From an uncultured Gammaproteobacteria bacterium (GTDB lineage Bacteria > Pseudomonadota > Gammaproteobacteria > Steroidobacterales > Steroidobacteraceae): a stretch of 64,000 nucleotides of DNA. The DNA lies in NCBI GenBank assembly GCA_963731105.1, contig CAVSUM010000020.1, forward strand, positions 2,943 through 66,942, in the 5' to 3' direction. A program made the translations under genes and the position numbers. Every line of letters begins with the position of its first letter. Position 1 is the stretch's first letter. Under the pieces are notes generated by a model. The model was not told where the DNA came from, made no database searches, and saw nothing but the letters and a program-made list of their open reading frames with translations. Below, in pieces: positions 5,341-24,244 of the stretch.

Positions 5341-5361
5341 GGCGGCGATGATCGCAAAGGA

Positions 5362-7891: not shown

Positions 7892-7916
7892 TGGCGGCTC
7901 ATGCACAAGATGCTGG

Positions 7917-8591
7917 CTAGCTCGCCGACCCGAGGTCGCGGCCGAAGCGTCTCGCCTGTTCCAGGTCACCTGGGGTGTCGACCTCTGCCAGTTCGAGTAC
8001 ATGACCTGGCAACGGCAGCCAAGCGCCGAGTGCCTCGAACACGTAACCCCTGGCATCGTCAAGCACTCGCGCGGGGCCGGCAAAGACGTTTGCCCATTCG
8101 AGCGGCTGCCGTCGATCTCGAGTGAAACCGCAGATCGTCGGGTGCTCCGCTTCATCGGCGTTCACCGCGTCCACGAACACCCCGTGCTCACTCGTCTGTC
8201 GTGTGAGCCCGACGAGGAGATCCGTGGTGGCGGCACGGCGCGCGAATGAACCGAATGCGGCACGCGAGATGAGCAGATCCCCATCCAAGAAGATCACCTT
8301 GCCGTGAAAGCCGCGCGCGCCAAGCGCCATGCTGAACGCTGTGTTGGTGCTTCGATAGTCCGGATTGCGTACCAGAACAACATGGCGATGGTATCTGGAG
8401 CAGTGCTCGATGATGATGTCCTCACGGTAGCCAACCGCAACGTGTACCCGGGCCACGTACGGTTCCACTAGTTCAATGAGTCGCGAGAGAAGCGTGCGTC
8501 CCTCTATCTCCAGCATGCACTTCGGCAGCCCGAGGCCGAGCCGGGAACCGAGTCCGGCGGCCGCGATTACAGCACCTTCAATAGGTTGCAC
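7917..8591 (-). CDS. nucleotidyltransferase (LicC/MobA-like NTP-transferase fold)
   Basis: ORF 7917..8591. N-terminal AVIAAAGLGSRLGLGLPKCMLEI matches the GxGxR...PK nucleotide-binding signature of sugar/alcohol-phosphate cytidylyl/uridylyl-transferases. Confidence 0.7.
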   Translation of the reverse strand: MQPIEGAVIAAAGLGSRLGLGLPKCMLEIEGRTLLSRLIELVEPYVARVHVAVGYREDIIIEHCSRYHRHVVLVRNPDYRSTNTAFSMALGARGFHGKVIFLDGDLLISRAAFGSFARRAATTDLLVGLTRQTSEHGVFVDAVNADEAEHPTICGFTRDRRQPLEWANVFAGPARVLDDARGYVFEALGAWLPLPGHVLELAEVDTPGDLEQARRFGRDLGSAS

Positions 8592-9169
8592 AGAGTTTCT
8601 CCGCTGTGGACGATGTAACCGGCCGCAGCTACCGCTGCCGGCATGGGGCTGTGCACGCCGCCGAATGCCACGCTGACGTCGGCCTCCTCGAGCATCGGCA
8701 CGTCATTGGCGCCGTCGCCGACCGCAATGACACGCTCGAAGCGACCGGACGCCCGCAGCGATCGCACCGCATCACCCTTGTCGAGAACGTGCTCAAGCCG
8801 AATGCGCTCGCCGGAGACGCTTGCCCGGGAAGACATGCATGTGCAGCCGATGCGCGCTGCGAGCGGTTCGATCCAGACATCGAGATTGCCCGTGACGAGG
8901 AAGCAGTCGCCGGTTCGGTTGCGAATGAACTCGGTGACAAACGGATCCAGGCCGATCTCATCGATGACCTCATGCACACGGCGGACCGGCACCTGTCCCA
9001 GAATCAGCGTGCGCAGGCGCAGCGAGTGGGCGAACGAAATCAGCCCCTGCATCGTGAGTTTCGTTAGGGTCGCGATCTCTTCGGAGATCCCAAGCTCGGA
9101 GGCGATGCAGGGTAGTATCTCCCGCGTCGTGACTGTCCCATCGAGATCGAAGCAGAAAGCCGTTTTCAT
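8567..9169 (-). CDS. HAD-superfamily (subfamily IB, phosphoserine-phosphatase-like) hydrolase
   Basis: ORF 8567..9169. Motif I FCFDLDGTVT and motif IV GDGANDVPML. The start overlaps the upstream stop as ATGA. Confidence 0.75.
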   Translation of the reverse strand: MKTAFCFDLDGTVTTREILPCIASELGISEEIATLTKLTMQGLISFAHSLRLRTLILGQVPVRRVHEVIDEIGLDPFVTEFIRNRTGDCFLVTGNLDVWIEPLAARIGCTCMSSRASVSGERIRLEHVLDKGDAVRSLRASGRFERVIAVGDGANDVPMLEEADVSVAFGGVHSPMPAAVAAAGYIVHSGETLCNLLKVL

Positions 9170-9927
9170 TGCCTGCGCTCCAGCAGCATCCAGCGCTGTC
9201 GTGTCTCGGAGCGGTTGTTCAGTGTCGGGTCCGAGAACAGGTCCGAGGCTCCGACGAACCGGAACCCGTTCTGCAACAGTGGTCCGTCAGCAAACCGCAG
9301 CAACTCCTCCTGCGAACGGTAGATCGCGTTGTACGACTGGCGCAGATCTTCCGAAAAATGGTCCTGGATGGTCAGGCGTCCCGCCATTGCAACAGGCTCG
9401 CGCAGCAGAATCCGGCAGGCATCAGCGGCAACCGCGGCGATGCGGCACATGGCGAGGTCAACGTCGTCGTCGTTGAGGTAGATGAAGAGACCCGCACACA
9501 GCACGCGGTCGAATGGCTTCGCCTCGCCTAGAGTGGCCAGCGAAACATCGGTCGCCGAGCACACCGTGAACCTGCAGTGCGGCAGGTCGGCGTAACTCGA
9601 CCGCGCAAATTCCACGAGGCCGGGACTGAGGTCGATGCCGTGGTAGTGCGCGCAGCTGCCGGCCACCTGCGCGACCCAGCGACCGGTCCCACAGCCGATA
9701 TCGAGTATACGCGTCGATGAGTCGACGGCTAGGAGGGGGGTCAGGATCCGCTTCTCCTCTGCGTCGCGGCGTTCGGCCAGGTCAGGGTGGTTGTCCTGGT
9801 ACAGGACGGCGCGCACTGGCCCGATTCTGGCGATGCGCCTGGCGCGCTCCTCGAAAAACGACGCCACGTCGTCGCGTTCGATCCGCGGCTGTGTCGCATC
9901 TTCCTTATCTGTGACAATCCTGGCCAT
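9166..9927 (-). CDS. class I SAM-dependent methyltransferase
   Basis: ORF 9166..9927. SAM motif I ILDIGCGTGRW; Rossmann-like alternation. Confidence 0.75.
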   Translation of the reverse strand: MARIVTDKEDATQPRIERDDVASFFEERARRIARIGPVRAVLYQDNHPDLAERRDAEEKRILTPLLAVDSSTRILDIGCGTGRWVAQVAGSCAHYHGIDLSPGLVEFARSSYADLPHCRFTVCSATDVSLATLGEAKPFDRVLCAGLFIYLNDDDVDLAMCRIAAVAADACRILLREPVAMAGRLTIQDHFSEDLRQSYNAIYRSQEELLRFADGPLLQNGFRFVGASDLFSDPTLNNRSETRQRWMLLERRQ

Positions 9928-9938
9928 TCGTTACCTGC

Positions 9939-11258
9939 TCAGTTGCTGCCGCTACGATCCGCGGCCACTCGGCTGCGCGACCAGCCGACAGTCAACCACA
10001 GTCCGGCCGCCGTCGATGCCTGAGTGATCAGCACCGCGCCCGCTGAACCCCGGAGCCCGTACGCGGGAACGAGAATGGCCGACGCAGCGATGAGGATCGC
10101 GATCCCACCCAGCTGCACCGCCAGGCGCAGCCGCTGCCGCTCCGAGGTGAGGAGCACGGTGCAGCCAAGGGAGCAAAGCCCGATCAGCAGGGGCAGCGGA
10201 GCCAGCAGGACCGCGAGTTCAGCCGCCGCGGTGAACCTGGCTCCGAGGATCAGCGGCAGCACGCTGCCAAGCACGGCCATTCCGACCGCGGCTGCGATGC
10301 CCCAGGCTACTGCTGCGACGACCAGTTTGCCGGCGAGATGTCGCGCATCCGTCGAGTCCGGTTTTGCCGCAGCACGGGACAGCCGCGGAAGCGCGGCGCT
10401 CGACAATGTCACGATCGGCAGGGCCAGTGCCGCGGCCAGGCGGCTCGCCACGGCGTAGATGCCAGCCATTTCTCCGCCTCCCAGCCTGAGCATGAGAGTC
10501 TTGTCGAGGGTGTTAAGGGCGATGTCCGCCGAACGTACCACAGCCAGTTCGATGCCGCGGCGGACGTCGGCTGTGGGGCGCACGCCCGAGCCCGCGACCG
10601 GGCGCAGCAGCCTGCGCACTGCGAGCGTCATGATGGCAGCCGCTGCCACCGATGCTGCGGCATGAAACAGGACGTAGGTCTCCAGCTGTGCATTCGGAAC
10701 CAGGATGCGACAGGACAACGCCGCCACAAGGCTGGCCACAGGGAGCAATGCGTAGACGGCGTGGCCCCAGCCCATCCTCTCGTGTGATTGCAGGGCATAA
10801 CTGCAGAGCACCGCAACCGGGAAGCAGATGACCTCCGAGACCCCGACGGCCAGCAGGACCGTGAATGCAGTTCGCTGGCCCATGGCGTGTGGCGCGACCG
10901 TCGCGAACACAATCGTCAGTACCGCTCCGCTCAGCAGTGTCGCGCGCATCGCCCGGGTCCATGACGCGCTGAATATTCGCGGTTGGCGCGGCACGTCAAG
11001 GAGCATGACGAGCCCGAGTCCGAACCCGCTAAGGGTGCCGATGGCGGTCGCCAGTCCCATGGCTCCGGCGAGCTGCCCGTAGCCTTCCGGACCGAGCAAG
11101 CGCGCCACGACAGCCACCCACAACAGGTAGCTGCCGGCGCGGAGAACCTGCCAGGCTGTTCCGAGCGTGACGCCCCTCGACAGTGACGGCGTACGTGACG
11201 AAGTTTGATCTGCGTCCACCAGAGGTGACGACCTCGAATCGGGATCGGATGCACTCAT
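9939..11258 (-). CDS. polysaccharide flippase, MOP superfamily (Wzx-like)
   Basis: ORF 9939..11258 (439 aa). About 12 hydrophobic helices across the whole length, located directly downstream of the priming transferase. Confidence 0.7.
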   Translation of the reverse strand: MSASDPDSRSSPLVDADQTSSRTPSLSRGVTLGTAWQVLRAGSYLLWVAVVARLLGPEGYGQLAGAMGLATAIGTLSGFGLGLVMLLDVPRQPRIFSASWTRAMRATLLSGAVLTIVFATVAPHAMGQRTAFTVLLAVGVSEVICFPVAVLCSYALQSHERMGWGHAVYALLPVASLVAALSCRILVPNAQLETYVLFHAAASVAAAAIMTLAVRRLLRPVAGSGVRPTADVRRGIELAVVRSADIALNTLDKTLMLRLGGGEMAGIYAVASRLAAALALPIVTLSSAALPRLSRAAAKPDSTDARHLAGKLVVAAVAWGIAAAVGMAVLGSVLPLILGARFTAAAELAVLLAPLPLLIGLCSLGCTVLLTSERQRLRLAVQLGGIAILIAASAILVPAYGLRGSAGAVLITQASTAAGLWLTVGWSRSRVAADRSGSN

Positions 11259-11270
11259 GCAGACGATTGC

Positions 11271-12839
11271 CTACTTGGCGCCGCGCCCAAGCATGACCGC
11301 CGGTATTGTTCTCAGCAGCAGCTGGAGATCCAGCAGCAGCGACCAGTCGTCAACGTAGGCCAAGTCCAGTTGCATCCACTCCTCGAACGAGAGATCGCTG
11401 CGGCCACTGACCTGCCACAGTCCAGTGATTCCTGGCTTCATCGACAGCCGGCGACGCTGCGGGCCGACGATACGCTGCTGCTCCTCGATCGGCAGGGGCC
11501 GCGGACCCACGAGACTCATTCGGCCGATGAGTACGTTGAACAACTGGGGCAGTTCGTCGATGCTGGTGCGTCTCAGCAGTTTGCCAAACGGTGTAACTCT
11601 CGGATCTGACTGGATCTTGAAGGCCGGGCCGTCGACCTCGTTCATTGCCGCGAGACCGGCCTTGCGTTCCTCCGCGTCCCGCACCATGGTCCGGAACTTG
11701 TACATGGTGAACGCCCTGCCGTTGTACCCGGTTCGCAGCTGGCAGAACAGGATCGGTCGGCCCATTGTGGTCCAGACACCCAGGGTAACCAACAGCAGCA
11801 ATGGCGACAGCATGATGAGGCCGGCGCTCGCTGCCGCGATATCGAGCAGCCGCTTCGCGATCAGCGCATCGGCTGACCGACGTCGCTTGTCGAACTTGAG
11901 TGCCGGCAGGCCGATTTCGTCGACGATTCGCACTTCGCGCCGGGTGTCGTGATCCACCCGCAGGTGGCACTGAAGCGGAACGCCGACCTCATCGCAGGCC
12001 TCAAGCAGCGCATCGATGTCCAGCACGACGTCCCGACTGCAGGATACGAGCACCACGTCTACTGCACTTTCGTGCAGGACTTGCCTCAGGTCTCCGGTTG
12101 AGCCGAGTACTGCCAGCCCCCAGTCGCGCGGGTCATCGCGGGCGTCCGGATGGGCAACGCAACCGATCAGCATCGGCGGAAACGACTGATCGCCGATCTG
12201 CTGCGCCACTTTCGTTACGGCCGCGCGGGAATCAGCTACCAGCAGCACGCGCAACTGGCTGTGACCTTGGGCATATTGATGCCTGATCCACGTGTGAAGG
12301 ACCAGTCGGTTCGCGAACATAAAGACGAACGTCATGGCAACGAAGAGCCCGACGACGCTGCGGTTGAGGGGAATCTGCGTCAGGTAGATGAGGAGGGCGA
12401 GCCCGAGAAGGCCGAAGACGTGCAGCCGCAGCAGTGCATTCAGCAAAGACGACGCTCGTCGCGGTCTCTCAAGCTGCCGGTAAAGACCCAGTACGGCGGC
12501 GAGCGACAGCCAGAGCGGGAGTGCGACGTAGCCGATCAGGATGTAGGCCTCGAGCGCCGGTGGCGACCTGAACCCCGCGTAGTGAGTTCGCAGCAGCGAA
12601 TGGACACCCATCGCGGCCACCATGGCCACGAAGATCGATACTGCGTCGAGCAGTACTAGGAAGCGGCGCAGTGCGGAGCGATGTGAATTCACGTAGTCGA
12701 CGAGGCCTTCAATGAGGCACCCTGCGGCGGGCACCGTACAATTCTGCGAGCCGCAGCCGATTTGACAAGATCTGGCGGTCTCAGCGACCTTAAAACCGTT
12801 AACTGGTTCGGCTTCGGTCCAGGGGGACATGGGCAGCAT
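11271..12839 (-). CDS. polyprenyl-phosphate glycosyl-1-phosphate transferase (WbaP/bacterial sugar transferase family)
   Basis: The C-terminal domain of ORF 11271..12926 reads RPILFCQLRTGYNGRAFTMYKFRTM...DELPQLFNVLIGRMSLVGPRP, the hallmark of bacterial sugar transferases. N-terminal TM helices are present. Start set at ATG 12839 (GAGG 4 nt upstream); GTG 12692 is an alternative. Confidence 0.85.
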   Translation of the reverse strand: MLPMSPWTEAEPVNGFKVAETARSCQIGCGSQNCTVPAAGCLIEGLVDYVNSHRSALRRFLVLLDAVSIFVAMVAAMGVHSLLRTHYAGFRSPPALEAYILIGYVALPLWLSLAAVLGLYRQLERPRRASSLLNALLRLHVFGLLGLALLIYLTQIPLNRSVVGLFVAMTFVFMFANRLVLHTWIRHQYAQGHSQLRVLLVADSRAAVTKVAQQIGDQSFPPMLIGCVAHPDARDDPRDWGLAVLGSTGDLRQVLHESAVDVVLVSCSRDVVLDIDALLEACDEVGVPLQCHLRVDHDTRREVRIVDEIGLPALKFDKRRRSADALIAKRLLDIAAASAGLIMLSPLLLLVTLGVWTTMGRPILFCQLRTGYNGRAFTMYKFRTMVRDAEERKAGLAAMNEVDGPAFKIQSDPRVTPFGKLLRRTSIDELPQLFNVLIGRMSLVGPRPLPIEEQQRIVGPQRRRLSMKPGITGLWQVSGRSDLSFEEWMQLDLAYVDDWSLLLDLQLLLRTIPAVMLGRGAK

Positions 12840-13880: not shown

Positions 13881-14570
13881 TTAGCGCCGGGCAAGGTACA
13901 GCAGATTGACGGTACGCGGGCTCATGCGAGCGATGAGCCGCGTGGCCGCGATAGACATGCCACGGTCAAGAATCGCCTGTTCGTAGTCGTTCCTGTTGCG
14001 GTAGCGGGCCACGTAGCCGCTGCGGTACGCGCGAACGATCTCCCGACCGTCGGCAACAGTGTCCACTAGCAGCAGATGCCCGCCCGGGCGGGTCAGGTTC
14101 CGGCACTTCGCCACGGCTTCCAGGTAGGTCTCCTCATGCAACAGGCAGGAGAACACGCCCATGCAGGCAACCAGGTCGTACTGATCTGATTCTGGAACAT
14201 CGTCAAGGCCCGCGATCTCGAATCGAACCTTGCTGGCCAAGGCCTCTGGCAGGCTCCGGCGCGCGTTGGTGATGAGGGAGGGCGAGATGTCATAGCCGAC
14301 CGTCGATCGAGCGTGCCGGGCCAGCATGCGTGTGAATTGACCGTCACCGCACCCGATATCTGCCGCCGAGCCGATTTCGCCCAGCGAGTCGAGTACGGAG
14401 CCAAGCACCTCCGTTCGCCGCTCGTAGTACTCCGGGGACGCCAGAAACGTGTAGCTGGAGTTGCGCCAAAAGCCCTCCGAGACTGCCTGCAGATCGTCGA
14501 AGCGCCGCGTGCCTGCGAGGAACAGGTTACGCAGTACGGTCGAAATCGATCGTCGCGCCGGTCTGCTCAC
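13881..14570 (-). CDS. class I SAM-dependent methyltransferase
   Basis: ORF 13881..14570. Motif I DIGCGDGQFT. The GTG start overlaps the pilR stop codon (GTGA). Confidence 0.7.
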   Translation of the reverse strand: MSRPARRSISTVLRNLFLAGTRRFDDLQAVSEGFWRNSSYTFLASPEYYERRTEVLGSVLDSLGEIGSAADIGCGDGQFTRMLARHARSTVGYDISPSLITNARRSLPEALASKVRFEIAGLDDVPESDQYDLVACMGVFSCLLHEETYLEAVAKCRNLTRPGGHLLLVDTVADGREIVRAYRSGYVARYRNRNDYEQAILDRGMSIAATRLIARMSPRTVNLLYLARR

Positions 14571-15911
14571 TCAATCCCCAGCTTCTTCACCCTGTACCTC
14601 AACTGCCTGAACGTCATCCCCAGCAGCTGCCGCCGCCTTGGTCTTGTTGTATCTGCGTCTGCTCCAGCGCCCGGACGATGGCCTCCCGCTCGATCGACTC
14701 GAGCTGCCCCTCCAGCCCGGCGGCCTCGGCCGTCTCCTCCACCGGCGGCAACTCCACCGCCGCCGTCCCCAGCTTGAGCTGGATATCCCCCGGCTCCACC
14801 CGCCCGTCCGAGCACAGCGTCACCGCCCGCTCCAGGATGTTCTCCAGCTCGCGGACGTTGCCCGGGTAGGCGTACGTCAGCAGCTTCTCCATCGCCTCGT
14901 CGCTGACCTCCGGCCGTCGGCACGCCGATCTGGCGCGACACCCGATCGAGCAGCATGTCCACCATCTGCGGCACGTCGTCCAGCCGCTCGCGCAACGCCG
15001 GCACGTGCAGCTCGATCACGTTGATGCGGTAATAGAGGTCTTCGCGAAAGCGGCCGGTCTTCACCAGCTCCTCGAGCTTGCGGTGCGTGGCCGACAGGAT
15101 GCGCACGTCCACCGGCACCTCGCGCGTCTCGCCGACGGGCCGCACGGCCTTCTCCTGGATCACGCGCAGCAGCTTCACCTGCATGTGCAGCGGCAGGTCG
15201 GCCACCTCGTCGAGGAACAGCGTGCCGCCTTCGGCGCTGCGGATCAGGCCTTCCTTGTCGGCCACGGCGCCGGTGAAGCTGCCCTTCTTGTGGCCGAACA
15301 GCTCGCTCTCCATCAGCTCGGTCGGGATCGCGCCGCAATTGACCGGCACGAACGGCCCGTCGGCACGGGGCCCGGACTCGTGGATCAGCCGCGCCACCAG
15401 TTCCTTGCCGGTACCCGAGTCGCCCGAGACATGCACCGGCGCCTGCGAGCGGGCCACCCGGGCAATCAGCTGCCGCAGCTGCTGCATCGGCTATCGAGTC
15501 GCCGAGCAGCCGCAGGGTTGCACGGCGGCCGGTCGCCTCGATGGATTCGCCGAGCTTGAGCGTGGCGGTGATCAGCTTGCGCAGCGCCGCCAGGTCGAGC
15601 GGCTTCGAGATGAAGTCGAACGCGCCGAGCTTGAGCGCCCGCACCGCCGCTTCGACGTTGCCGTGGGCCGTGATCACCGCCACCGGCACGCCGGGGCGGT
15701 GGTCCTGGATCCACGCGACGAGGTCGAGCCCGTCGCCGTCGGGCAATCGCATGTCGGTGAGCACGAGGTCGTAGCGCCGCCCGCCGAGCTGTCGCACCCC
15801 GCTCGCGTAGTCCGCGGCAGTGTCCACCTCGAGCTGCATGCGCCCGAGCGTGATCGCCAGCAGTTCGCGGATGTCGGGCTCGTCGTCGATGACCAGGGCG
15901 CGGGGGGGCAT
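14567..15911 (-). pseudogene. pilR: sigma-54-dependent response regulator PilR (NtrC family), about four frame breaks as assembled
   Basis: The pieces collinear with Pseudomonas PilR are:
- Receiver: MPPRALVIDDEPDIRELL...DMRLPDGDGLDL, ORF 14877..15911.
- AAA+ domain: SGDSGTGKELVARLIH...GAFTGA-type motif...GGTLFLDEV, ORF 14567..15487.
- YPGNVRELENILERA, ORF 14614..14892.
- HTH tail LLGMTFRQLRYRVKKLGIE.
The frame changes near 15492, 14912, 14655 and 14628. Total length of 1345 nt is consistent with net +1. Confidence 0.85.
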
Positions 15912-15935
15912 GGTGGGCTCAGGCGGGCACGAAGT

Positions 15936-16127
15936 TCACGAACGCCCTTCCTCGATCAGCGCCTCGACGTCGATCGCGCCGGCCGGAATCGGGTGCTCGC
16001 GCATGAACGCTTGGAACCGGTCGATGGCGGCTCCTGCATCCGAGGTACGCTTGGCGTCGCTCGGCGCCGGGTCGGGCATGATGTAGTCAGCGCCGACCTC
16101 CCTATCCTTGATCTGTTCTGCATTCAT
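15936..16127 (-). CDS. hypothetical small protein (63 aa)
   Basis: ORF 15936..16127, between a degraded toxin remnant and pilR. I recognise no family, and it may be a leftover of a rearranged TA module. Confidence 0.25.
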   Translation of the reverse strand: MNAEQIKDREVGADYIMPDPAPSDAKRTSDAGAAIDRFQAFMREHPIPAGAIDVEALIEEGRS

Positions 16128-16229
16128 CGAGTCAGCCTATAGCCTAGTCGCCACCGCGACAAGGCGGGGCGGCGCACACCCATTGGCGCTGCCTCAATCG
16201 TGCAGGCGGCATATCTTGCCGGACTTCAT
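16128..16229 (-). pseudogene. possible PemK/MazF-like toxin remnant (tentative)
   Basis: An ATG overlapping the antitoxin stop (ATGA) opens MKSGKICRLHD* and stops after 11 codons. The +1 frame continues ...IEAAPMGVRRPALS..., weakly recalling the MazF N-terminal GxRPALV segment. Only ~100 nt remain before the next ORF. Confidence 0.3.
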
Positions 16230-16471
16230 CGGTTGGCGTGACGCTTCAAAGTGCGGGACTGCATCACGGCCAGGCCCGAGTCGAGGCCGGAATTGTTTTC
16301 CGGAACCCCATACACCGCATTGAGCTGTTCGGTGACGGCTGACTGACCGTGGCGTGCCAGTAGATCCCTTAGCGCTCGGCAGTACAGTTCGCTGCGTGTG
16401 AGCCCCAGGCGGTTGGCAAGTCGTTCTGCCGATCGGAACAGCGGGACCGGCAACGAGATGGCGGTTTTCAT
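16226..16471 (-). CDS. ribbon-helix-helix (CopG/MazE-ChpI-type) antitoxin
   Basis: ORF 16226..16471. MKTAISLPVPLFRSAERLANRLGLTRSELYCRALRDLL is the classic RHH antitoxin N-terminus. No intact toxin follows. Confidence 0.75.
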   Translation of the reverse strand: MKTAISLPVPLFRSAERLANRLGLTRSELYCRALRDLLARHGQSAVTEQLNAVYGVPENNSGLDSGLAVMQSRTLKRHANR

Positions 16472-16475
16472 AGTG

Positions 16476-16874
16476 CTATTTCCCGTTCCGGGCGCTGGCC
16501 TTCAGCTCTTCGCGCACCACGCGTCGCAGCGTCTCCTCGAGAGGCTCCTTGGCGCGCACGATGTGCTGCCGCAGCGCGTCATTGATCCTCGTCTGGTAGT
16601 TACCACCGCCGGCAGCTTCCACCTCGGATTTGAACCACTCGAGCACTTCATCGTCGAGGCGGATCGTAATTCGCGTCTTGCCGGGTGGTATCGGCTTGAT
16701 TGGACCCCGGATTCCCTTCGAGAAATCGTAGTACTTGCGCATCAACGCTCCTGATACCGACGCCGTTCGAACGGGGTCGCCGAGCGCGGTCGCGGCATCG
16801 GAGAAGCGGACGCCATGCTTACGAAAATTCGCGGCAGCCTTGGCGGGGTCCCATTCGTAGCCATCCGCGGCCAT
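16476..16874 (-). CDS. BrnT (DUF497) N-terminal remnant fused in frame to a BrnA-like antitoxin
   Basis: ORF 16476..16874. Residues 1-35 (MAADGYEWDPAKAAANFRKHGVRFSDAATALGDP) match the BrnT toxin N-terminus; the rest of the toxin is missing. From Met45 (ATG 16742) the sequence MRKYYDFSKGIRGP...KTRITIRLDDEVLEWFKSE...GGGNYQTRINDALRQH is BrnA-like. Confidence 0.7.
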   Translation of the reverse strand: MAADGYEWDPAKAAANFRKHGVRFSDAATALGDPVRTASVSGALMRKYYDFSKGIRGPIKPIPPGKTRITIRLDDEVLEWFKSEVEAAGGGNYQTRINDALRQHIVRAKEPLEETLRRVVREELKASARNGK

Positions 16875-19800
16875 GATATGTACAGCTGTGCACTGAGGTC
16901 AACCGGACGCACAGCTTGTTGCCGATGCTCCCAGAGGCCACGTCGAGAAATTGCCACGAATGAGCGGGAATGCGTTTGGCTGCCTGGCGCCTCACCCCGC
17001 CTGCCACCGCTGCGGATCCGCAAAGATGATCCTGAACGTGCTCCCGCCCTCCGGCCGCGCCTCGTACGCGAGCAGCGCGCCGTTCGTCTGGCACAGCTCG
17101 CGGGCGATGAACAAGCCGAGCCCGGTTCCACCGGCGCCGTTGGTGAAGAACGGCTCGAAGATGCGCTCGGCATTGGCAGGATCGATGCCGGCGCCGCGGT
17201 CGGTCACCTCGAGGAACGGCCGGTCGGTCGCGGCGATGCGGCCGACTCGCAACCGCACGGGCACGGGCCCGCCGCCGGCACCATGCTTCAGCGCGTTGTC
17301 GCACAGGTTCCACAGCACCTGGTGCAGGTGCGAGGGATCGAACTGCACCTCCAGTCCCGGCACCGCCGCCTCGAGCCCGATGCGGTCGTCCTCCAACTGC
17401 AGCGTCGCGCGGAACTCGACGAGGAACGCCTCGAGCCACAACGACAGCTCAACGCGCTCCTGGCGCGTGGTGTCCTTGCGCGACAGCTGCAGCACGTTGT
17501 CGATGATCTGGCTCACCCGCACCGCGTTCTTCTCGATGATGTCGGTGAGGTGGCGGTCGTCGTCACCGAGGACCGGCGACTCCCGCAGCAGCTGCCCCGC
17601 GTGGCTCATGGCGCCGACGGGATTGCGGATCTCGTGCGCAATGCTGGCGCTCAACCGGCCGAGCGAGGCGAGCTTCGACTGCTGCACTTGTTGCGCCACG
17701 ACGCTGGTGTCCTCGAGGAACACCAGCACCGAGCCGGGACCACGCTCCGTCAGCGACACGAAGTACGGCCTGATCACGGTGCCGCCGTCCGCCGACACGA
17801 CCTCTCCCGTGGTGTCGCGCCGGTCATGGTCCCGTCGCCGCCAGGCGTCGAGCAGGTAGAGCATTCGCGGCGACACCTCGCCCAGCAGGGATCCGCTCGG
17901 CACCTCCCGGCCCGCGAGCATGCGTGCCGCCTTGTCGTTGATCAGCCGGATGCGGTCGTCCTCCTCGACCACGAGGATGCTCTCGCGCAGGTGCTGCACG
18001 ATGAAGCGGTTCAGCTCGTTGAGGTTGGCGAGGTCGAGGTCGCGCTGCTGCACCAGCGCCTCGCTCTCGCGCAGCCGGTTGGCGAGCGGGATGGCGAGCA
18101 GCGTGATCGCGAAGAGACTCGCGCCGGTCAGGCCGGCGGCCAGGAAATCGGAGCCCGATGCGACGCCGGTCAGGATCGAGACCAGGGTCTCGAGCAGCAG
18201 CCCGATCGAAATCACCGCCGTCGCCAGCAGCGCCAGCCGCGGTCGGACGATGGCGGCGATCGCGCCCACGGGCAGGAACAGCAGCGTGGCGAGGCCGCTG
18301 CTGACGCCGCCGCTCGCGTGCACCAGCAGCGTGATAGCGACGCCGTCCACGGCAAGCGGGAACAGCTTGACCAGATTTCGCGGCAGCCTTGGCGGGGTCC
18401 CATTCGTAGCCATCCGCGGCCATGATATGTACAGCTGTGCACTGAAGTCAACCGGACGCACAGCTTGTTGCCGATGCTCCCAGAGGCCACGTCGAGAAAT
18501 TGCCACGAATGAGCGGGAATGCGTTTGGCTGCCTGGCGCGTCACCCCGCCTGCCACCGCTGCGGATCCGCAAAGATGATCCTGAACGTGCTCCCGCCCTC
18601 CGGCCGCGCCTCGTACGCGAGCAGCGCGCCGTTCGTCTGGCACAGCTCGCGGGCGATGAACAAGCCGAGCCCGGTTCCACCGGCGCCGTTGGTGAAGAAC
18701 GGCTCGAAGATGCGCTCGGCATTGGCAGGATCGATGCCGGCGCCGCGGTCGGTCACCTCGAGGAACGGCCGGTCGGTCGCGGCGATGCGGCCGACTCGCA
18801 ACCGCACGGGCACGGGCCCGCCGCCGGCACCATGCTTCAGCGCGTTGTCGCACAGGTTCCACAGCACCTGGTGCAGGTGCGAGGGATCGAACTGCACCTC
18901 CAGTCCCGGCACCGCCGCCTCGAGCCCGATGCGGTCGTCCTCCAACTGCAGCGTCGCGCGGAACTCGACGAGGAACGCCTCGAGCCACAACGACAGCTCA
19001 ACGCGCTCCTGGCGCGTGGTGTCCTTGCGCGACAGCTGCAGCACGTTGTCGATGATCTGGCTCACCCGCACCGCGTTCTTCTCGATGATGTCGGTGAGGT
19101 GGCGGTCGTCGTCACCGAGGACCGGCGATTCCTCGCAGCAGCTGCCCCGCGTGGCTCATGGCGCCGACGGGATTGCGGATCTCGTGCGCAATGCTGGCGC
19201 TCAACCGGCCGAGCGAGGCGAGCTTCGACTGCTGCACTTGTTGCGCCACGACGCTGGTGTCCTCGAGGAACACCAGCACCGAGCCGGGACCGCGCTCCGT
19301 CAGCGACACGAAGTACGGCCTGATCACGGTGCCGCCGTCCGCCGACACGACTTCTCCCGTGGTGTCGCGCCGGTCATGGTCCCGTCGCCGCCAGGCGTCG
19401 AGCAGGTAGAGCAATCGCGGCGACACCTCGCCCAGCAGGGATCCGCTCGGCACCTCGCGGCCCGCCAGCAGGCGTGCCGCCTTGTCGTTGATCAGCCGGA
19501 TGCGGTCGTCCTCCTCGACCACCAGGATGCTCTCGCGCAGGTGCTGCACGATGAAGCGGTTCAGTTCGTTGAGGTTGGCGAGGTCGAGGTCGCGCTGCTG
19601 CACCAGCGCCTCGCTTTCGCGCAGCCGGTTGGCGAGCGGGATGGCGAGCAGCGTGATCGCGAAGAGACTCGCGCCGGTCAGGCCGGCGGCCAGGAAATCG
19701 GAGCCCGATGACGACGCCGGTCAGGATCGAGACCAGGGTCTCGAGCAGCAGCCCGATCGAAATCACCGCCGTCGCCAGCAGCGCCAGCCGCGGCCGGACG

Positions 19801-19917
19801 ATGGCGGCGATCGCGCCCACGGGCAGGAACAGCAGCGTGGCGAGGCCGCTGCTGACGCCGCCGCTCGCGTGCACAAGCAGCGTGATGGCGACGCCGTCCA
19901 CGGCGAGCGGGAACAGC
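16828..19917. repeat. tandem direct duplication, about 1.54 kb per unit (16828-18366 and 18377-19917) with a 10-nt junction filler
   Basis: Direct comparison of the two stretches gives an offset of 1549 nt, growing to 1551 after two 1-nt insertions in the right copy. There are a few SNPs, e.g. 16897 g versus 18446 a. The filler ttgaccagat sits at 18367-18376. Each unit holds the 3' 1.37 kb of pilS, the spacer and the first 47 nt of the brnT-like gene. Confidence 0.95.
16992..18413 (-). CDS. pilS: PilS-type sensor histidine kinase, N-terminally truncated duplicate copy (uninterrupted frame)
   Basis: Part of ORF 16992..18722. ATG 18413 gives MATNGTPPRLPRNLVK, then LFPLAVDGVAITLLVHASGG (last TM helices), HisKA SASIAHEIRNP and the HATPase motifs DNALKHG and GTGLGLFIARE. 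There are no frame breaks. Confidence 0.7.
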   Translation of the reverse strand: MATNGTPPRLPRNLVKLFPLAVDGVAITLLVHASGGVSSGLATLLFLPVGAIAAIVRPRLALLATAVISIGLLLETLVSILTGVASGSDFLAAGLTGASLFAITLLAIPLANRLRESEALVQQRDLDLANLNELNRFIVQHLRESILVVEEDDRIRLINDKAARMLAGREVPSGSLLGEVSPRMLYLLDAWRRRDHDRRDTTGEVVSADGGTVIRPYFVSLTERGPGSVLVFLEDTSVVAQQVQQSKLASLGRLSASIAHEIRNPVGAMSHAGQLLRESPVLGDDDRHLTDIIEKNAVRVSQIIDNVLQLSRKDTTRQERVELSLWLEAFLVEFRATLQLEDDRIGLEAAVPGLEVQFDPSHLHQVLWNLCDNALKHGAGGGPVPVRLRVGRIAATDRPFLEVTDRGAGIDPANAERIFEPFFTNGAGGTGLGLFIARELCQTNGALLAYEARPEGGSTFRIIFADPQRWQAG

Positions 19918-20210
19918 GCCATCCACTCGGCCCCGGGCCAGCGTCGCTGGATCGGCTGCACGCACACCAGGCCGAAGGTGAAGTAGGCGACGCAGATGCC
20001 GAGGAACAGGCCCGGCTTCACGGCGCCGACGCTGTTGTTCGGCGCGTTAAAGAACAGCAGCAGGATCAACACCATCGGCACCAGCAGCCGGAAAACGTTG
20101 AGCAGGCCGATGACGCGCCAGGCGAGGTCGTCGGAGCGGGCCGCAACGGCGGTCGGGCTGGCATTACTGGTCATTGCCGCCAGTTTCGCCCGTCGCGGGA
20201 GCGGCTTCAA
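18541..20210 (-). pseudogene. pilS: PilS-type sensor histidine kinase, full-length copy with native N-terminal TM region, two frame breaks as assembled
   Basis: ORFs 19374..20210 (TM-rich N-terminus), 19112..19603 and 18541..19071 are consecutive pieces. Relative to the sister copy there is an extra base near 19711 (gatgacgacgcc versus gatgcgacgcc) and another near 19133 (tcctcgcag versus tcccgcag). Confidence 0.85.
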
Positions 20211-20293: not shown

Positions 20294-21461
20294 ATGAACC
20301 TCCACGAATACCAGTCCAAGCAGCTCTTTCGCCCGCTACGGCATCCCCGTGCCGGCGGGGCACGTCGCCTCGACGCCCGAGGAAGCAGCCGACGCGGCGC
20401 GCCGCCTCGGCGGCGGCCTCTGGGTCGTCAAGGCGCAGGTCCACGCGGGCGGCCGCGGCAAGGCCGGCGGCGTGAAGGTCGTGAAGACCGTGCAGGACGT
20501 AACGGCCGCCGCGGCCGGCATGCTCGGCAAGCGGCTCACCACCAAGCAGACGGGCGCCGAGGGCCTGCCGATCAACCAGGTGTACGTGGAGGTCGGCTCG
20601 AAGATCGAGCGGGAGCTGTACCTGAGCCTGCTGCTGAATCGCGACACCGGCCACATCGCTTTCGTGGCTTCCGCCGCCGGCGGCATGAACATCGAGGAAG
20701 TCGCTGCGAAGACGCCGGAGAAGATCATCCGCGCCGAGATCCACCCGGCGACCGGGCTGCAGGGCTCGCACTGCCGCGCGCTCGCGTTCGGCCTCGGCCT
20801 CAAGGGCGACGCAGGTCAGCGCAGTTCGAGACGATCGCGCGCGGCCTCTACAAGCTCTACCTCGAGTGCGACGCGAGCCTCGTCGAGGTGAACCCGCTGA
20901 TCGTCACCGGCGACGGCAACGTGATCGCGCTCGACGCCAAGATCAACATCGAGGAGAACGCGCTGTTCCGCCAGAAGGACCTCGTCGCCTGGCGCGACAC
21001 GTCGCAGGAAGACGAGATGGAGCGCATCGCCGGCGAGGCGGACCTCAACTACGTCTCGCTCGACGGCGACATCGCCTGCATGGTGAACGGCGCCGGCCTC
21101 GCCATGGCGACCATGGACCTGATCAAGCTGCACGGCGGCTCGCCGGCGAACTTCCTCGACGTCGGCGGCGGCGCCACGCGCGAGCGCGTCACCACGGCGT
21201 TCAAGCTGATCCTGCAGAACCCGAAGGTGAAGGCGATCCTGGTCAACATCTTCGGCGGCATCGTCCGCTGCGACATGATCGCGGAGGGCGTCGTCGGCGC
21301 GGCGCGCGACCTCGGCCTGCACCTGCCGGTCGTGGTGCGCATCGAGGGCACCAACGCCGCGCAAGGGTCGCAAGATCCTCGCCGAGAGCGGGCTCGAGCT
21401 GATCGCGGCCACCGATCTCACCGACGCGGCGCGCAAGGTCGTCGCGGCTGCGAGGAAGTAA
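20294..21461 (+). pseudogene. sucC: succinyl-CoA synthetase beta subunit, three frame breaks as assembled (probably sequencing errors)
   Basis: [12 protein letters not shown] at ATG 20294, then [16 protein letters not shown]...[17 protein letters not shown] (ORF 20349..20891), then [10 protein letters not shown]...[13 protein letters not shown]...[10 protein letters not shown] (frame of ORF 20174..22498), ending [30 protein letters not shown]. The breaks are near 20330 (+1), 20822 (-1) and 21368 (+1). Confidence 0.9.
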
Positions 21462-21463: not shown

Positions 21464-22498
21464 ATGTCGATCCTGATCAACAAGAACACGCGCGTCCTCT
21501 GCCAGGGTTTCACGGGCAAGCAGGGCACGTTCCACTCCGAGCAGTGCATCGCCTACGGCACGAAGCTGGTCGGCGGCGTCACGCCCGGCCGCGGCGGCGA
21601 GAAGCACCTCGGGCTGCCGGTGTTCGACACGGTGCGCGACGCGGTCGCGAAGACCGGTGCCGACGCGACCATGATCTACGTGCCGGCGGCGTTCGCGGCC
21701 GATGCGATCATCGAGGCGGCGGACGCGGGCATCGCCACCATCGTCTGCATCACCGAGGGCATCCCGGTGAACGACATGGTGAAGGTGAAGGCCGCGCTGC
21801 GCGATTCGACGTCGCGGCTGGTCGGGCCGAACTGCCCGGGCGTGATCACGCCGGGCGAATGCAAGATCGGCATCATGCCGGGCTTCATCCACAAGAAGGG
21901 CACGATCGGCATCGTGTCGCGCTCGGGCACGCTGACCTACGAGGCCGTGTTCCAGACCACCAACAACGGCCTCGGCCAGAGCACCTGCGTCGGCATCGGC
22001 GGCGACCCGGTGCGCGGCATGAACTTCATCGACGTGATCGAGCTGTTCGAGCGCGATCCGCAGACCGAAGGCATCATCATGGTCGGCGAGATCGGCGGCA
22101 GCGACGAGGAGGCCGCCGCGGAGTACATCCGCCGCAACGTGTCGAAGCCGGTGGTCGCGTACATCGCGGGCGTCACGGCGCCCCCGGGCAAGCGCATGGG
22201 CCATGCCGGCGCGGTGATCTCGGGCGGCAAGGGCACGGCCGCGGACAAGTTTGCGGCGCTCGAGGCGGCGCGGGTGACGACGGTGCGCTCGCCGGCGGAG
22301 CTGGGCTCGGCGATTGCGAAGCGGATGGGCCGGATCAAGAGCGCCGCCGGCAAAGCCAGAGTGACCAAGCCGGGCAAGAAGAAGGTCGCGGCGAAGAAAA
22401 AGACTGCAGCGACGAAGTCGGCGGCCAAGAAGGCTGCTGCACGGCGACCGGCTGCGATGAAGCGCAAGGTGCGCAAGGCCGTCCGCAAGGCCAAGTAA
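21464..22498 (+). CDS. sucD: succinyl-CoA synthetase alpha subunit with a ~55-aa Lys/Ala-rich C-terminal extension
   Basis: ATG 21464, 3 nt after the sucC stop. [27 protein letters not shown]...SRSGTLTYE...[14 protein letters not shown] is canonical SucD. The frame continues without a stop into ...[40 protein letters not shown]. Confidence 0.9.
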
Positions 22499-22501
22499 GC
22501 C

Positions 22502-22549
22502 CCCTCACCCTCTCCCGCAAGCGGGAGAGGGAGAGGGAGAGTGAGAAGG
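22502..22549. repeat. REP-like palindromic element, family A (CCCTCTCCCGC-N2-4-GCGGGAGAGGG core with CCCTCACCC/GGGTGAGGG-like flanks), copy 1
   Basis: The sequence ccctcaccctctcccgcaagcgggagagggagagggagagtgagaagg lies immediately after the sucD stop. The same core recurs at 23372, 28247, 28448 and 41902. Confidence 0.85.
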
Positions 22550-22637
22550 TGCGGGGGTTTGTGAGCGAACACGCAAGATTTTCGCAGTGACCGGGAGTCG
22601 GTCCCGACTCAGGATGGCGAGGCTGCCGTAGGGCGGC

Positions 22638-22673
22638 TATGACGCCTTGCGTCATATAACGCAAGGCGTTATA
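22638..22673. promoter_or_regulatory. putative HigA operator: two abutting perfect 8-3-8 palindromes
   Basis: TATGACGCcttGCGTCATA (22638-22656) overlaps TATAACGCaagGCGTTATA (22655-22673), about 17 nt upstream of the higB ATG. The arrangement is conserved before the second higBA copy. Confidence 0.6.
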
Positions 22674-22689
22674 AGGCGAGGGACCGCCG

Positions 22690-22973
22690 ATGATCCTGAG
22701 TTTTCGCGACCGGGAGACCGAGAAGCTCTGGTGGGGCGAGAGCTCTCGCCGATTGCCGCCGTGGATACTGGCACGGCGATCAGGAAGCTGCGACTTTTGA
22801 ATGAAGCAACATCGCTAGCTGAACTGGTTTCGCCACCGGGCAATCGTCTGGAGGCGTTCTCCGGCAATCGACTCGGTCAACACAGCATTCGAATCAACGA
22901 CCAGTGGCGGATCTGCTTTCGTTGGAGTGATCGAGGGCCCGAAGATGTCCAGATCGTCGACTACCACTCGTAG
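22690..22973 (+). pseudogene. higB: HigB-type (RelE/ParE superfamily) toxin, copy 1, one frame break
   Basis: ATG 22690 gives MILSFRDRETEKLWWGESSRRLPPWI. The frame is then lost near 22776 (284 nt versus 285 nt in copy 2). The rest, IRKLRLLNEATSLAELVSPPGNRLE...SIRINDQWRICFRWSDRGPEDVQIVDYH, is in the frame of ORF 22647..22973. Confidence 0.8.
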
Positions 22974-23274
22974 CAAGCCGAAGCCGGTTGTGGTTCCAAA
23001 CCCACATCCCGGTGAGATTCTGCTTGAGGAATTCCTGAAGCCCCTGGGCATGAGCCAGAATGCCCTGGCCCGGGCTCTGAAGGTTTCACCTCGCAGAATC
23101 AACGAACTCGTGCTCGGCAAGCGCGCAGTGTCGGCAGACACAGACTTGCGACTCGGTCGCTACTTCAAGCTCCACGATGGTTTCTTCCTCGGCTTGCAGG
23201 CCGAATACGACCTCATGGAGCAGAGGCGCAAGCTGGGCGATCGACTCAAGGAAATCACCCCCAGGGCAGCGTAG
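22945..23274 (+). CDS. higA: HigA-family HTH (XRE-type) antitoxin, copy 1
   Basis: ORF 22927..23274 trimmed to ATG 22945 by analogy with copy 2. NPHPGEILLEEFLKPLGMSQNALARALKVSPRRINELVLGKRAVSADTDLRLGRYF is the HigA signature. Confidence 0.85.
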   Translation: MSRSSTTTRSKPKPVVVPNPHPGEILLEEFLKPLGMSQNALARALKVSPRRINELVLGKRAVSADTDLRLGRYFKLHDGFFLGLQAEYDLMEQRRKLGDRLKEITPRAA

Positions 23275-23371
23275 CCGTTTCCTCGTCGAGCACAGCGACC
23301 GCCTGCCGAAGGCGCCGACGTCGTTAGCAAGGTGAAGCGCAGTGCGCAAGGCCAAGTAGGCCTACACAGAA

Positions 23372-23415
23372 CCCTCACCCCCACCCTCTCCCGCAAGCTG
23401 GAGAGGGAGCGGGAG
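23372..23415. repeat. REP-like palindromic element, family A, copy 2
   Basis: The sequence is ccctcacccccaccctctcccgcaagctggagagggagcgggag. It is preceded by gtgcgcaaggccaagtag, which echoes the last codons of sucD. Confidence 0.8.
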
Positions 23416-23495
23416 TTTGCGAGCGATCACGCAAGATTCTCGCGGTGGCTGGGAATCCGTCCCGGCCAATGATGGCGGGGCTGCCGGAGGGCGGC

Positions 23496-23531
23496 TATGA
23501 CGCCTTGCGTCATATAACGCGACGCGTTATA
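23496..23531. promoter_or_regulatory. putative HigA operator (second copy of the double palindrome)
   Basis: TATGACGCcttGCGTCATA (23496-23514) overlaps TATAACGCgacGCGTTATA (23513-23531), about 17 nt upstream of higB copy 2. Confidence 0.6.
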
Positions 23532-23547
23532 AGGCGAGGGACCGCCG

Positions 23548-23832
23548 ATGATCGTCAGCTTCCGGGACCGGGAGACGGAGCGCTTCTGGTCAGGCGAGCG
23601 GAGTCGAAGATTGCCGCCGTGGATCCAGTCGGCAGCAATGCGGAAGTTGTCATGGTTGGACCAGGCCGCATCGCTTCGCGAGTTGGCTGTGCCGCGCGGC
23701 AACCGCCTCGAATCGCTGGCCGGGCAGCGACTAGGCCAGTACAGCATTCGCATCAACGACCAATGGCGTATCTGCTTTAGATGGAGCGATCGAGGGCCGG
23801 AAGATGTCCAAATCGTCGACTACCATTCGTAG
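23548..23832 (+). CDS. higB: HigB-type (RelE/ParE superfamily) toxin, copy 2, intact
   Basis: ORF 23548..23832. MIVSFRDRETERFWSGERSRRLP...GNRLESLAGQRLGQYSIRINDQWRICFRWSDRGPEDVQIVDYHS. Confidence 0.85.
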   Translation: MIVSFRDRETERFWSGERSRRLPPWIQSAAMRKLSWLDQAASLRELAVPRGNRLESLAGQRLGQYSIRINDQWRICFRWSDRGPEDVQIVDYHS

Positions 23833-24133
23833 CAAGGGCGGCGAGTTGCGCGCGCCAAATCCGCATCCGGGTGAGATCCTGCTGGAAGAGCTGCTGAAGC
23901 CTCTCGGCATGAGCCAGAATGCTCTGGCGCGCGCGCTCAAGGTCTCGCCGCGACGGATCAACGAACTCGTACTAGGCAAGCGCGCAGTCACGGCGGACAC
24001 GGACCTGCGTCTTGGTCGCTACTTCAATCTCCACGAAGGCTTCTTCCTGGGACTTCAGGCCCGCTACGACCTGATGGAGCAGAGGCGAAAGCTGGGCGAC
24101 CGGCTCAAGGAAATCACCCCCCGGGCGGCTTAG
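23804..24133 (+). CDS. higA: HigA-family HTH antitoxin, copy 2
   Basis: ORF 23804..24133. It overlaps the higB 3' end by 29 nt and is about 85-90 percent identical in protein sequence to copy 1. Confidence 0.85.
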   Translation: MSKSSTTIRSKGGELRAPNPHPGEILLEELLKPLGMSQNALARALKVSPRRINELVLGKRAVTADTDLRLGRYFNLHEGFFLGLQARYDLMEQRRKLGDRLKEITPRAA

Positions 24134-24244
24134 ACGCCTCCTCGTCCAGCACGGCCACCGCCTCGCGGAAATTCCGCATTTCCGCGCTGCGGCAACGGCC
24201 TACAGTGGCAGGGAGCGCAGCCGGCCTGCGCGAGGGGGAACGCC

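Follow-up and report, generated by a model that had tools for sequence, protein, structure and literature searches.

Gene organization of the pilS locus

The locus under study lies in a 64-kb stretch of DNA (the window) and carries, on the minus strand, pilR (14567..15911), a brnT remnant fused in frame to brnA (16476..16874) and two copies of the kinase gene pilS, a truncated one designated pilS' (16992..18413) and a full-length one (18541..20174), followed by sucC on the plus strand (20294..21446). The best 80 matches in a search of 185,579 species genomes were all uncultured MAGs, the nearest of them sharing 80% amino-acid identity, which suggests that the window most likely originates from a metagenome as well. 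The closest protein found anywhere shares 93% identity.

The full-length pilS runs through three frames as written. Once its two 1-nt insertions are removed, the product is a complete protein of 543 aa with the Pfam domains 6TM_PilS, HisKA and HATPase_c, scoring 87 bits against PF25323 (cut-off 27) over profile positions 5-188 of 189 and containing six hydrophobic segments. HisKA and HATPase_c score ~53 and ~96 bits, respectively, in both copies, and the H-box ASIAHEIRNP in the HisKA domain can be read directly from the sequence. pilR encodes REC, sigma-54 AAA+, lid and HTH regions, with its frames split by single-base insertions at 14629, 14654, 14917 and 15493; the Response_reg, Sigma54_activat and AAA_lid_14 pieces lie in three frames and align in order with intact PilR proteins from relatives. 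The presence of this sigma-54-dependent regulator next to pilS is in keeping with a kinase of the PilS type. The locus resembles PilS-PilR of P. aeruginosa in its six-helix membrane domain (6TM_PilS), HisKA, HATPase_c, the H-box with its ExxN motif (AHEIRN) and the neighbouring sigma-54 activator gene, but differs in that pilS and pilR are ~1 kb apart with toxin-antitoxin remnants between them, and in that the host is an uncultured Steroidobacteraceae-like bacterium.

The gene described as brnT-like in an earlier reading made from the sequence only (the sequence-only reading) turned out to be a dead remnant, as evident from Pfam profile scores and the reading of frames. Its N-terminal part matches positions 1-29 only of the 77 in the BrnT profile and scores 29.8-32.6 bits, below the cut-off of 34.5, the C-terminal ~14 residues of BrnT lie in the +1 frame, and the remnant continues in frame into BrnA (from 16742), which is above its cut-off (PF14384, 54.5 bits against 26.1). 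With this below-cut-off score and a C-terminus in another frame, no intact BrnT toxin was found at the locus; therefore, the module is an orphan antitoxin and not an active toxin-antitoxin pair. It shares with BrnT/BrnA type II modules the above-cut-off BrnA, a recognisable BrnT N-terminus, and a palindromic sequence and promoter-like site upstream, but differs from them in having only a remnant of brnT.

Structure of the tandem repeat and its junction

The two pilS copies belong to a pair of direct repeats, the sole near-identical repeat within the window. On the minus strand, the left unit (16828..18366, 1539 nt) combines 47 nt from the start of the brnT remnant, a spacer of 117 nt and 1375 nt from the 3' part of pilS, in keeping with the 1.37 kb, spacer and 47 nt proposed earlier; the right unit (18377..19917, 1541 nt) is 98.8% identical to it. 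The sequence-only reading had described these repeats with an offset of 1549-1551 nt and had called for a nucleotide-level alignment with a count of SNPs. The alignment bears the description out, with 98.83% identity over 1541 columns, 16 substitutions (including 16897 G versus 18446 A, correctly cited before) and two gaps, both of which are 1-nt insertions in the right copy. The offset steps from 1549 to 1550 and then to 1551 nt because of these extra bases, a T at 19133 and an A at 19711, close to which insertions in the full-length copy had already been placed.

The units are joined by the filler TTGACCAGAT (18367..18376, 10 nt), which had also been noticed. It matches neither native flank and has no second occurrence in the 64-kb window. 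The breakpoints, read directly, are without microhomology, and a nearby 6-nt match, CGCCAT, is unused. An origin of the filler as a garbled native brnT copy was rejected, as 6/10 matching positions with one gap are indistinguishable from chance, and so was a nearby template, for which no source was found. We know of no common sequencing adapter that it resembles.

A non-homologous, local, same-orientation join with a 10-nt filler and no microhomology looks more like the trace of an actual molecule than an overlap error, and thus favours a real tandem duplication by illegitimate joining. Such a duplication would be inconsequential, recent or transient, and would be present in a single strain, in all of its cells or in a part of them; its frame breaks would be consensus errors. 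We consider this reading unlikely. Its 1% divergence would be explained if the upstream copy had been imported from a related strain, with one homology-anchored and one illegitimate end, or if reads of a duplication-free strain had been polished onto one copy. Homology-facilitated illegitimate recombination after DNA uptake, reportedly described by de Vries & Wackernagel in 2002, would yield one homologous and one illegitimate join together with foreign-allele divergence, a likeness that is hypothetical here. To our knowledge, few cases are on record in which integration leaves an added tandem copy, and neither such a copy nor a filler at the join is an established feature of that process. It also counts against an inconsequential duplication that kilobase-scale tandem repeats are, as is well established, soon lost by homologous recombination, and 1.5-kb direct repeats at 99% identity are unstable under RecA.

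The truncated left copy

pilS' is an open frame of 473 codons, in whose product 16 residues derived from the junction precede residues 87-543 of PilS (TM3-6, HisKA, HATPase_c); both its freedom from frame breaks and its in-frame ATG at 18413, within the duplicated brnT fragment, had been recognised from the sequence and hold. The product opens with MATNGTPPRLPRNLVK fused to LFPLAVDG. It had been portrayed as a kinase lacking the first ~100 residues and most N-terminal TM helices. The N-terminal loss is real, but not its extent, as residues 1-86 are missing, corresponding to hydrophobic segments 1 and 2 of six, and four segments are retained. Consistently, the match to the 6TM_PilS profile covers positions 84-188 only, with four hydrophobic segments. 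The missing TM1-2 includes the TM1 arginine that may correspond to Arg24 of P. aeruginosa.

The duplicated 5' fragment of the brnT remnant (18377..18423, minus strand, 47 nt) contains two start codons. ATG 18423, brnT's own, is out of the pilS' frame and starts an ORF of 199 codons without a Pfam match, and ATG 18413 is in frame. A sigma-70-like promoter match (TTGACT-18 nt-TATCAT, 10/12 positions) lies in the duplicated spacer at 18422..18451 on the minus strand, and a similar site (TTGACC-18 nt-TATCAT) occupies the native place upstream of the brnT remnant and brnA (16873..16902, minus strand); two such sites were found as against 0.2 expected in shuffles. The -10 element of the duplicated site ends at 18422, which would place the transcription start at ~18415, 2 nt upstream of ATG 18413.

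These features are compatible with a real and selected duplication, in which the second copy of the promoter ahead of the brnT remnant and brnA would drive pilS' as a nearly leaderless transcript with its 5' end at ATG 18413 or just before it, and the four-helix product would act as kinase/phosphatase on PilR without the normal pilin input, beside an intact full-length PilS. The open frame behind ATG 18413, the position of the promoter-like site just before it and the intact HisKA and HATPase_c domains favour such a role, as does the removal of an even number of helices, by which the kinase domains would still be cytoplasmic. In P. aeruginosa, the transmembrane segments of PilS detect PilA, and Arg24 has been implicated in this (Kilmury & Burrows 2016, a study cited in both PMC6058289 and PMC6528607); control of pilin transcription and membrane pilin sensing by PilS are known only from P. 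aeruginosa and a small number of other species. However, ATG 18423, 10 nt upstream in another frame, would compete for initiation, and the role of the promoter-like element as an operon promoter is doubtful because it overlaps the brnT start codon and a similar sequence precedes that codon in relatives with intact brnT. The in-frame ATG, the duplicated promoter-like site and the loss of N-terminal helices are correct details, yet they would not amount to proof of expression.

The relatives also speak against a functional pilS'. The best 120 protein relatives are mostly ~540 aa long, the exceptions of 448-480 aa being incomplete or frameshifted gene calls, and the chimeric N-terminus was not found among them. 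No natural four-helix PilS was found either. Public 'PilS' entries of 454-456 aa were considered as natural four-helix forms and discarded, as those checked are frameshifted gene calls starting at the conserved Met85; in one (L082) the 5' end of the gene lies upstream in another frame, and another (L083) leaves 343 nt upstream uncalled. A selected role for pilS' is regarded as improbable. That a maintained duplication has partly freed pilus regulation from membrane pilin levels and tied it to antitoxin autoregulation, with a leaderless four-helix PilS from the operon promoter of the orphan BrnA acting on PilR beside the full-length kinase, is more doubtful still. Should the duplication prove real, it would amount to a natural experiment on what the PilS membrane domain does, yet to a single-genome variant of a well-known system.

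Differences between the copies

The copies differ at 14 coding positions, 12 of them synonymous third positions and two Met/Leu exchanges, giving a pN/pS of 0.06. A random spread of the differences over codon positions has P = 8e-5, which rules out sequencing errors as their source, and neutrality of one copy since duplication has P = 8e-4, which rules out the left copy as a drifting pseudogene. Because 12/14 differences are synonymous and pN/pS is 0.06, both copies are real alleles under purifying selection; the codon pattern shows that neither has drifted as a pseudogene. The differences are distributed as a mosaic, with none in the 3' 588 nt of pilS against 14 in the 787 nt that follow (P = 4e-4), a pattern typical of recombining strains.

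Such allelic differences would fit an inconsequential real duplication if one allele had been imported from a related strain or sequence of such a strain had been mixed in, and the low pN/pS is also compatible with selection on both copies, as a functional pilS' would have it. A dS of 0.03, had it arisen in place, would imply that both copies were kept under selection for a long time.

Frame breaks in the window

Thirteen well-supported single-base insertions were found in 12.6 kb of conserved sequence comparable with relatives (~1.0-1.2 per kb), and no clean deletion was found in the same 12.6 kb. The count was limited to homology-supported sites, as a codon-usage HMM confuses frameshifts with ordinary gene boundaries. 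Four of the insertions lie in pilR and four in sucC (20330, 20809, 20818 and 21368), which serves as a housekeeping control for this class of error, each judged against 9-35 relatives. The inserted bases in this window are A/T and lie outside homopolymers. The motif CGCAG recurs at 4-5/9 insertion sites; it is present in the error-free left pilS copy too.

The insertions look like consensus errors because all of them are single-base and they also occur in the conserved genes sucC and pilR. Pseudogenisation was rejected as their cause, since all are +1 insertions, sucC and pilR are affected and the proteins are otherwise well conserved; the AAA+ part of PilR, for instance, retains 93% identity to relatives. 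The two frame breaks of the right copy likewise look like ordinary consensus insertion errors. The functional asymmetry suggested in the sequence-only reading, between an intact truncated copy and a broken full-length one, on which its kinase uncoupled from pilin and driven by a toxin-antitoxin promoter rests, is thus not sustained, as the same insertions occur in sucC and pilR, and two breaks in the right copy with zero in the left agree with chance at the insertion rate of the window, P(0) being 0.19. This tracing of the 'broken' copy to an error class also weakens the case for a selected pilS'.

The repeat region has two insertions in 3.1 kb, against eight in 2.5 kb of pilR and sucC. A repeat without an excess of errors is in line with an inconsequential real duplication and counts against a false one, for which halved depth would predict more insertions in the repeat than in its flanks.

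Comparison with related loci

The sequence-only reading had proposed a comparison of the pilS locus in related genomes. A scan of 81 related loci revealed a near-identical second pilS in one of them only, L010 (CAWIDH010000026.1, MFD00962.bin.2.116), a long-read MAG. Here the tandem repeat has a unit of 5.28 kb with sucDC-pilS, and its copies, at 98.77% identity, are joined by a 37-nt unmatched filler for which no match was found in the 81 loci or in the window, and 32/48 coding differences between the copies fall at third positions. The two cases are alike in locus and clade, in the tandem direct repeat with a short unmatched filler, in the predominance of third-position differences and in scattered 1-nt indels between copies. 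They differ in that the L010 unit spans sucD, sucC and nearly all of pilS, and in that its indels are mostly homopolymeric, unlike the non-homopolymer A/T insertions of the window. As an independent long-read MAG with a like pattern, L010 is counted in favour of a false duplication in such assemblies; as a second case with the same features, it may also be counted in favour of an inconsequential real duplication.

The pilS' junction itself was found in no relative, neither among the 185,579 species genomes nor among the protein relatives, which is unfavourable to a real duplication with or without a function. A 24-mer across the junction had no match in JGI metagenome contigs either; this is weak evidence, as a 36-mer that covers three SNPs and admits either allele at each found no same-species sequence there.

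Origin of the tandem repeat

The pilS tandem repeat is best explained as a haplotype ('heterotype') false duplication, to which we assign a probability of roughly 0.6. A real duplication, all its forms taken together, is possible but less probable. An assembly chimera of two strain variants had been the fallback of the sequence-only reading, and is now favoured by the allelic differences, the window-wide insertions and the single pilS of all relatives except L010. The source of the window would be an uncultured Steroidobacteraceae-like gammaproteobacterium, assembled with many errors and most likely from long reads, whose true locus would hold one pilS between sucCD and a toxin-antitoxin cargo region preceding pilR. 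Two co-occurring strain variants, ~1% apart, would have been left unmerged over an overlap of 1.54 kb and placed end to end through 10 nt of unsupported sequence. Each copy would then be a faithful allele of a functional pilS, and the open truncated left copy with its in-frame ATG would be a by-product of the position of the join. That the assembler, rather than the cell, produced this join is our inference.

False duplications in genome assemblies are said to have been described by Kelley & Salzberg in 2010. They may show allelic differences, adjacent copies, and joins by gaps or unsupported filling, arise where haplotypes diverge more or are structurally different, and give rise to spurious additional or partial genes (Ko et al. 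2022, Genome Biol 23:205, PMC9516828). The present case resembles their heterotype class in the adjacent copies of one locus with genuine allelic variants, in the untemplated filler between them and in the extra partial gene. It differs in that the class was described in diploid eukaryotes, the 'haplotypes' here being co-occurring bacterial strains, and in that the class is defined by read depth and k-mers, the evidence here being the assembled sequence.

Against a false duplication stands the join between non-homologous positions 1.55 kb apart in the same orientation; random read chimeras rarely give such a local same-orientation join, and if a graph bubble were simply unrolled, the join would be homologous and free of filler. 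The junction also keeps the pilS frame open behind an ATG with a strong promoter-like site just upstream, an outcome that has a chance of about one third and is expected if the arrangement was selected. L010, too, may just as well be biological in origin.

The false duplication, if correctly identified, carries a caution: where long-read metagenome assemblies are rich in errors, mixed strains and a faulty consensus can mimic partial duplicates diverged by ~1% and 'frame-broken' paralogues, which are open to misreading as regulatory innovation. Two cheap internal checks tell such cases apart from biology, namely whether nearby housekeeping genes carry the same indels and whether the differences between copies are synonymous.

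Co-assembled strains at the pilS locus are documented in this clade, which is indirect evidence that the sample of the window may also have held more than one strain. Three of the related loci (L014, L015 and L039) are contigs of one MAG and are 97.5-98.1% identical at this locus; the match between L014 and L015 stops ~1.4 kb downstream of pilS, where the L039 contig terminates. The pilS-pilR interval is structurally variable among relatives, with inserts of 0.1-2.6 kb.

Structure of the repeat and gene order

A search for repeats, a self-BLAST of the region and global alignment agree on two direct repeats, 16828-18366 (left copy) and 18377-19917 (right copy), with 98.83% identity, separated by the 10-nt filler TTGACCAGAT. 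This confirms the near-identical repeats and filler described in the sequence-only reading of this DNA. Sixteen positions are substituted between the copies, and the right one has an additional T at 19133 and an additional A at 19711. The filler has no second occurrence within the window and no match in either native flank. The pilS repeat (98.8% identical) is present in the sequence and is the sole near-identical repeat detected in the 64 kb. The one other large repeat, a pair of tandem higB/higA-like modules (22464-23304 and 23327-24163), is only 77% identical and, unlike the pilS repeat, is an old, genuine duplication.

The locus lies throughout on the minus strand, with sucC and sucD divergent on its other side. 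Full-length pilS (20174 to 18541) is first in transcription order, followed by a 117-nt spacer, a 47-nt fragment of a brnT remnant, the filler, a truncated pilS (pilS', codon 87 to stop, 18366 to 16992) and a second copy of the 117-nt spacer. The brnT remnant, to which brnA is fused (16874 to 16476), comes next, ahead of an ORF resembling ribbon-helix-helix antitoxins and of pilR (15911 to 14567). Read without its two extra bases, the right copy gives an entire PilS of 543 aa with matches to 6TM_PilS, HisKA and HATPase_c. The left copy is a 473-codon open frame starting at ATG 18413. Both this open frame and the two insertions had been read correctly from the sequence; the truncation also holds, but its extent had been overstated (about 100 residues and most TM helices), as pilS' lacks residues 1-86, that is, hydrophobic segments 1-2 of six, and four remain.

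What had been called a brnT-like gene is a remnant. Its first 34 codons are left, with a score below the Pfam cut-off, and its last ~14 codons (RSATPFERRRYQER and the stop) lie in the +1 frame as compared to the intact 72-aa BrnT of the related locus L005. The +1 frame of the remnant (16742-16874) starts at ATG 16864 and ends with TGATG overlapping the brnA start, so this 40-codon ORF may be translationally coupled to brnA. In relatives, the pilS-pilR gap varies from 0.1 to 2.6 kb with variable toxin-antitoxin cargo (BrnA, PIN, MazE, HTH, RHH), as seen in the cargo regions of the window (15912-16991) and of the related loci L081 (3662-4224), L082 (5391-7092) and L005 (11389-14050). Comparison of these loci indicates a structurally variable spot, a hot spot for such cargo in the clade. 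The brnT deletions differ among relatives, and an orphan brnA is left behind a conserved palindrome and a promoter-like site.

Divergence between the copies

Fourteen differences fall within pilS, 12 of them synonymous at third positions and two Met/Leu exchanges at first positions, where both states are present among relatives (pS = 0.032, pN = 0.002, pN/pS = 0.06). Random errors are rejected as their source by the codon-position bias (P = 8e-5), and neutral drift of one copy since duplication by the scarcity of replacements (P = 8e-4). The differences are mosaic: all 14 lie in the 5' 787 nt of the duplicated pilS part, and its 3'-terminal 588 nt are free of them (P = 4e-4). The two copies are thus real alleles, which implies either long purifying selection on both in one genome or divergence in two genomes; in the latter case, the copies would have diverged separately and later been joined by the cell or by the assembler.

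Single-base insertions

Set against as many as 35 related genomes, retrieved via PilS, the window shows 13 single-base insertions with good support in the 12.6 kb that has counterparts in relatives, about 1 per kb: four in pilR (14629, 14654, 14917, 15493), four in sucC (20330, 20809, 20818, 21368), two in the right pilS copy (19133, 19711) and three further ones (~25480, 27650, ~28055). All 13 indels are insertions, mostly of A or T; no clean single-base deletion was found in this stretch, and none of the nine sites inspected for context lies in a homopolymer. CGCAG adjoins 4-5 of these nine, and the insertion-only profile contrasts with that of L010, a related long-read locus with homopolymer indels. 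The affected proteins are otherwise strongly conserved, the AAA+ part of PilR being 93% identical to relatives. Real decay breaking sucC and pilR four times each, with no other decay, is not credible, so the frame breaks are best explained as consensus errors.

The rate outside pilS (1.16 per kb) predicts about 1.9 insertions in the right copy, where 2 are observed, and about 1.65 in the left, where none is observed (P(0) = 0.19). The contrast of an intact truncated copy with a broken full-length one, on which the sequence-only reading was built, is therefore uninformative.

Origin of the duplication

The best 80 matches among 185,579 species genomes are all MAGs of Steroidobacteraceae-like Gammaproteobacteria (top, 80% amino-acid identity), and the closest protein among 5.8 billion clusters (93% identical) comes from a 4.2-kb metagenome contig. 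The source organism is thus uncultured, with a metagenome as the almost certain origin of the window. Neither the junction nor same-species sequence was found in JGI metagenome contigs. Among the related loci scanned, only L010, a long-read contig of MAG MFD00962.bin.2.116 from another species of the clade, carries a near-identical second pilS. Its 5.28-kb tandem repeat (753-6035 and 6073-11353; 98.77% identical) covers sucD, sucC and pilS; the unit begins at an AT-rich boundary and stops 21 nt short of the pilS stop codon. The copies are separated by eight single-base gap positions, and 32 of 48 coding differences are at third positions. The 37-nt filler matches none of the sequences compared; L010 thus resembles the window in a tandem repeat of ~98.8% identity with a short unmatched filler in the same locus region. 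Three contigs of one MAG, MFD00032.bin.2.79 (L014, L015 and L039), are 97.5-98.1% identical across 12.8 kb around pilS; the match of L014 and L015 ends about 1.4 kb downstream of pilS, where the L039 contig also ends. They are strain haplotigs placed in one bin, documenting in the clade co-assembled strains ~1-2% apart that differ structurally here.

A 1.5-kb tandem repeat of 99% identity is unstable in the cell, and reaching dS = 0.03 in place would require lasting selection on both copies. The copies show allelic differences and lie side by side; the join is short and probably unsupported, and the assembly is error-rich and probably from a mixed population. These are properties that Ko et al. 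(2022, PMC9516828) report for heterotype false duplications. An assembly artefact of this kind is a likelier reading than a genome feature (probability about 0.6), in line with the fallback of the sequence-only reading, a chimera of two strain variants. Against an artefact, the two joined positions are non-homologous, lie only 1.55 kb apart and have the same orientation, which random chimeric reads rarely give and simple graph errors do not account for; the repeat also shows no error excess, and at the junction pilS stays in an uninterrupted frame behind an ATG. A real yet inconsequential duplication, in which one copy may have come from a related strain or been polished with its reads, appears unlikely. 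The finding matters little unless reads show the duplication to be real.

Expression of a truncated PilS from a real duplication is more doubtful still. The duplicated spacer contains a sigma-70-like match, TTGACT-18 nt-TATCAT (10/12 positions), one of two such sites in 4.1 kb as compared to 0.2 expected. Its -10 ends at 18422, placing the inferred start at about 18415, 2 nt before the in-frame ATG 18413; pilS' could conceivably be transcribed almost without a leader. Removal of two helices would also keep the topology. TM1, absent from pilS', carries Arg20. This residue may be equivalent to P. aeruginosa PilS Arg24, which has been linked to PilA sensing (Kilmury & Burrows 2016, as cited in PMC6528607). 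However, the -10 match overlaps the brnT start codon and similar sequence lies upstream in relatives with intact brnT, making a promoter role doubtful, and the brnT ATG 10 nt upstream opens an out-of-frame 199-codon ORF without Pfam match. The best protein relatives have about 540 aa, shorter entries being incomplete or frameshifted calls. Public entries of 454-456 aa (P0037, P0046, P0047, P0054) all begin at the conserved Met85 (MALFPLAVDG); those examined are frameshifted gene calls rather than natural short forms, the pilS 5' end lying upstream in a different frame in L082 (3750-5371) and 343 nt upstream of the short PilS being left uncalled in L083 (274-1980). The frame breaks are attributable to errors, and the pilin-blind, TM-truncated kinase driven from a toxin-antitoxin promoter, like the other biology built on the repeat, lacks support.

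Other features of the window

SucD (21464-22498) bears a ~55-residue lysine/alanine-rich, histone H1-like C-terminal tail (22330-22498); tails of similar composition in >20 relatives mark it as a trait of the clade rather than the product of a read-through error. Palindromes or inverted repeats, 42-82 nt long, occur between genes at 29395-29449, 33811-33877, 36919-37000 and 28245-28286/28435-28476. The first two are related (about 88-90% identical), and this kinship suggests that the repeats may be REP-like elements or terminators.
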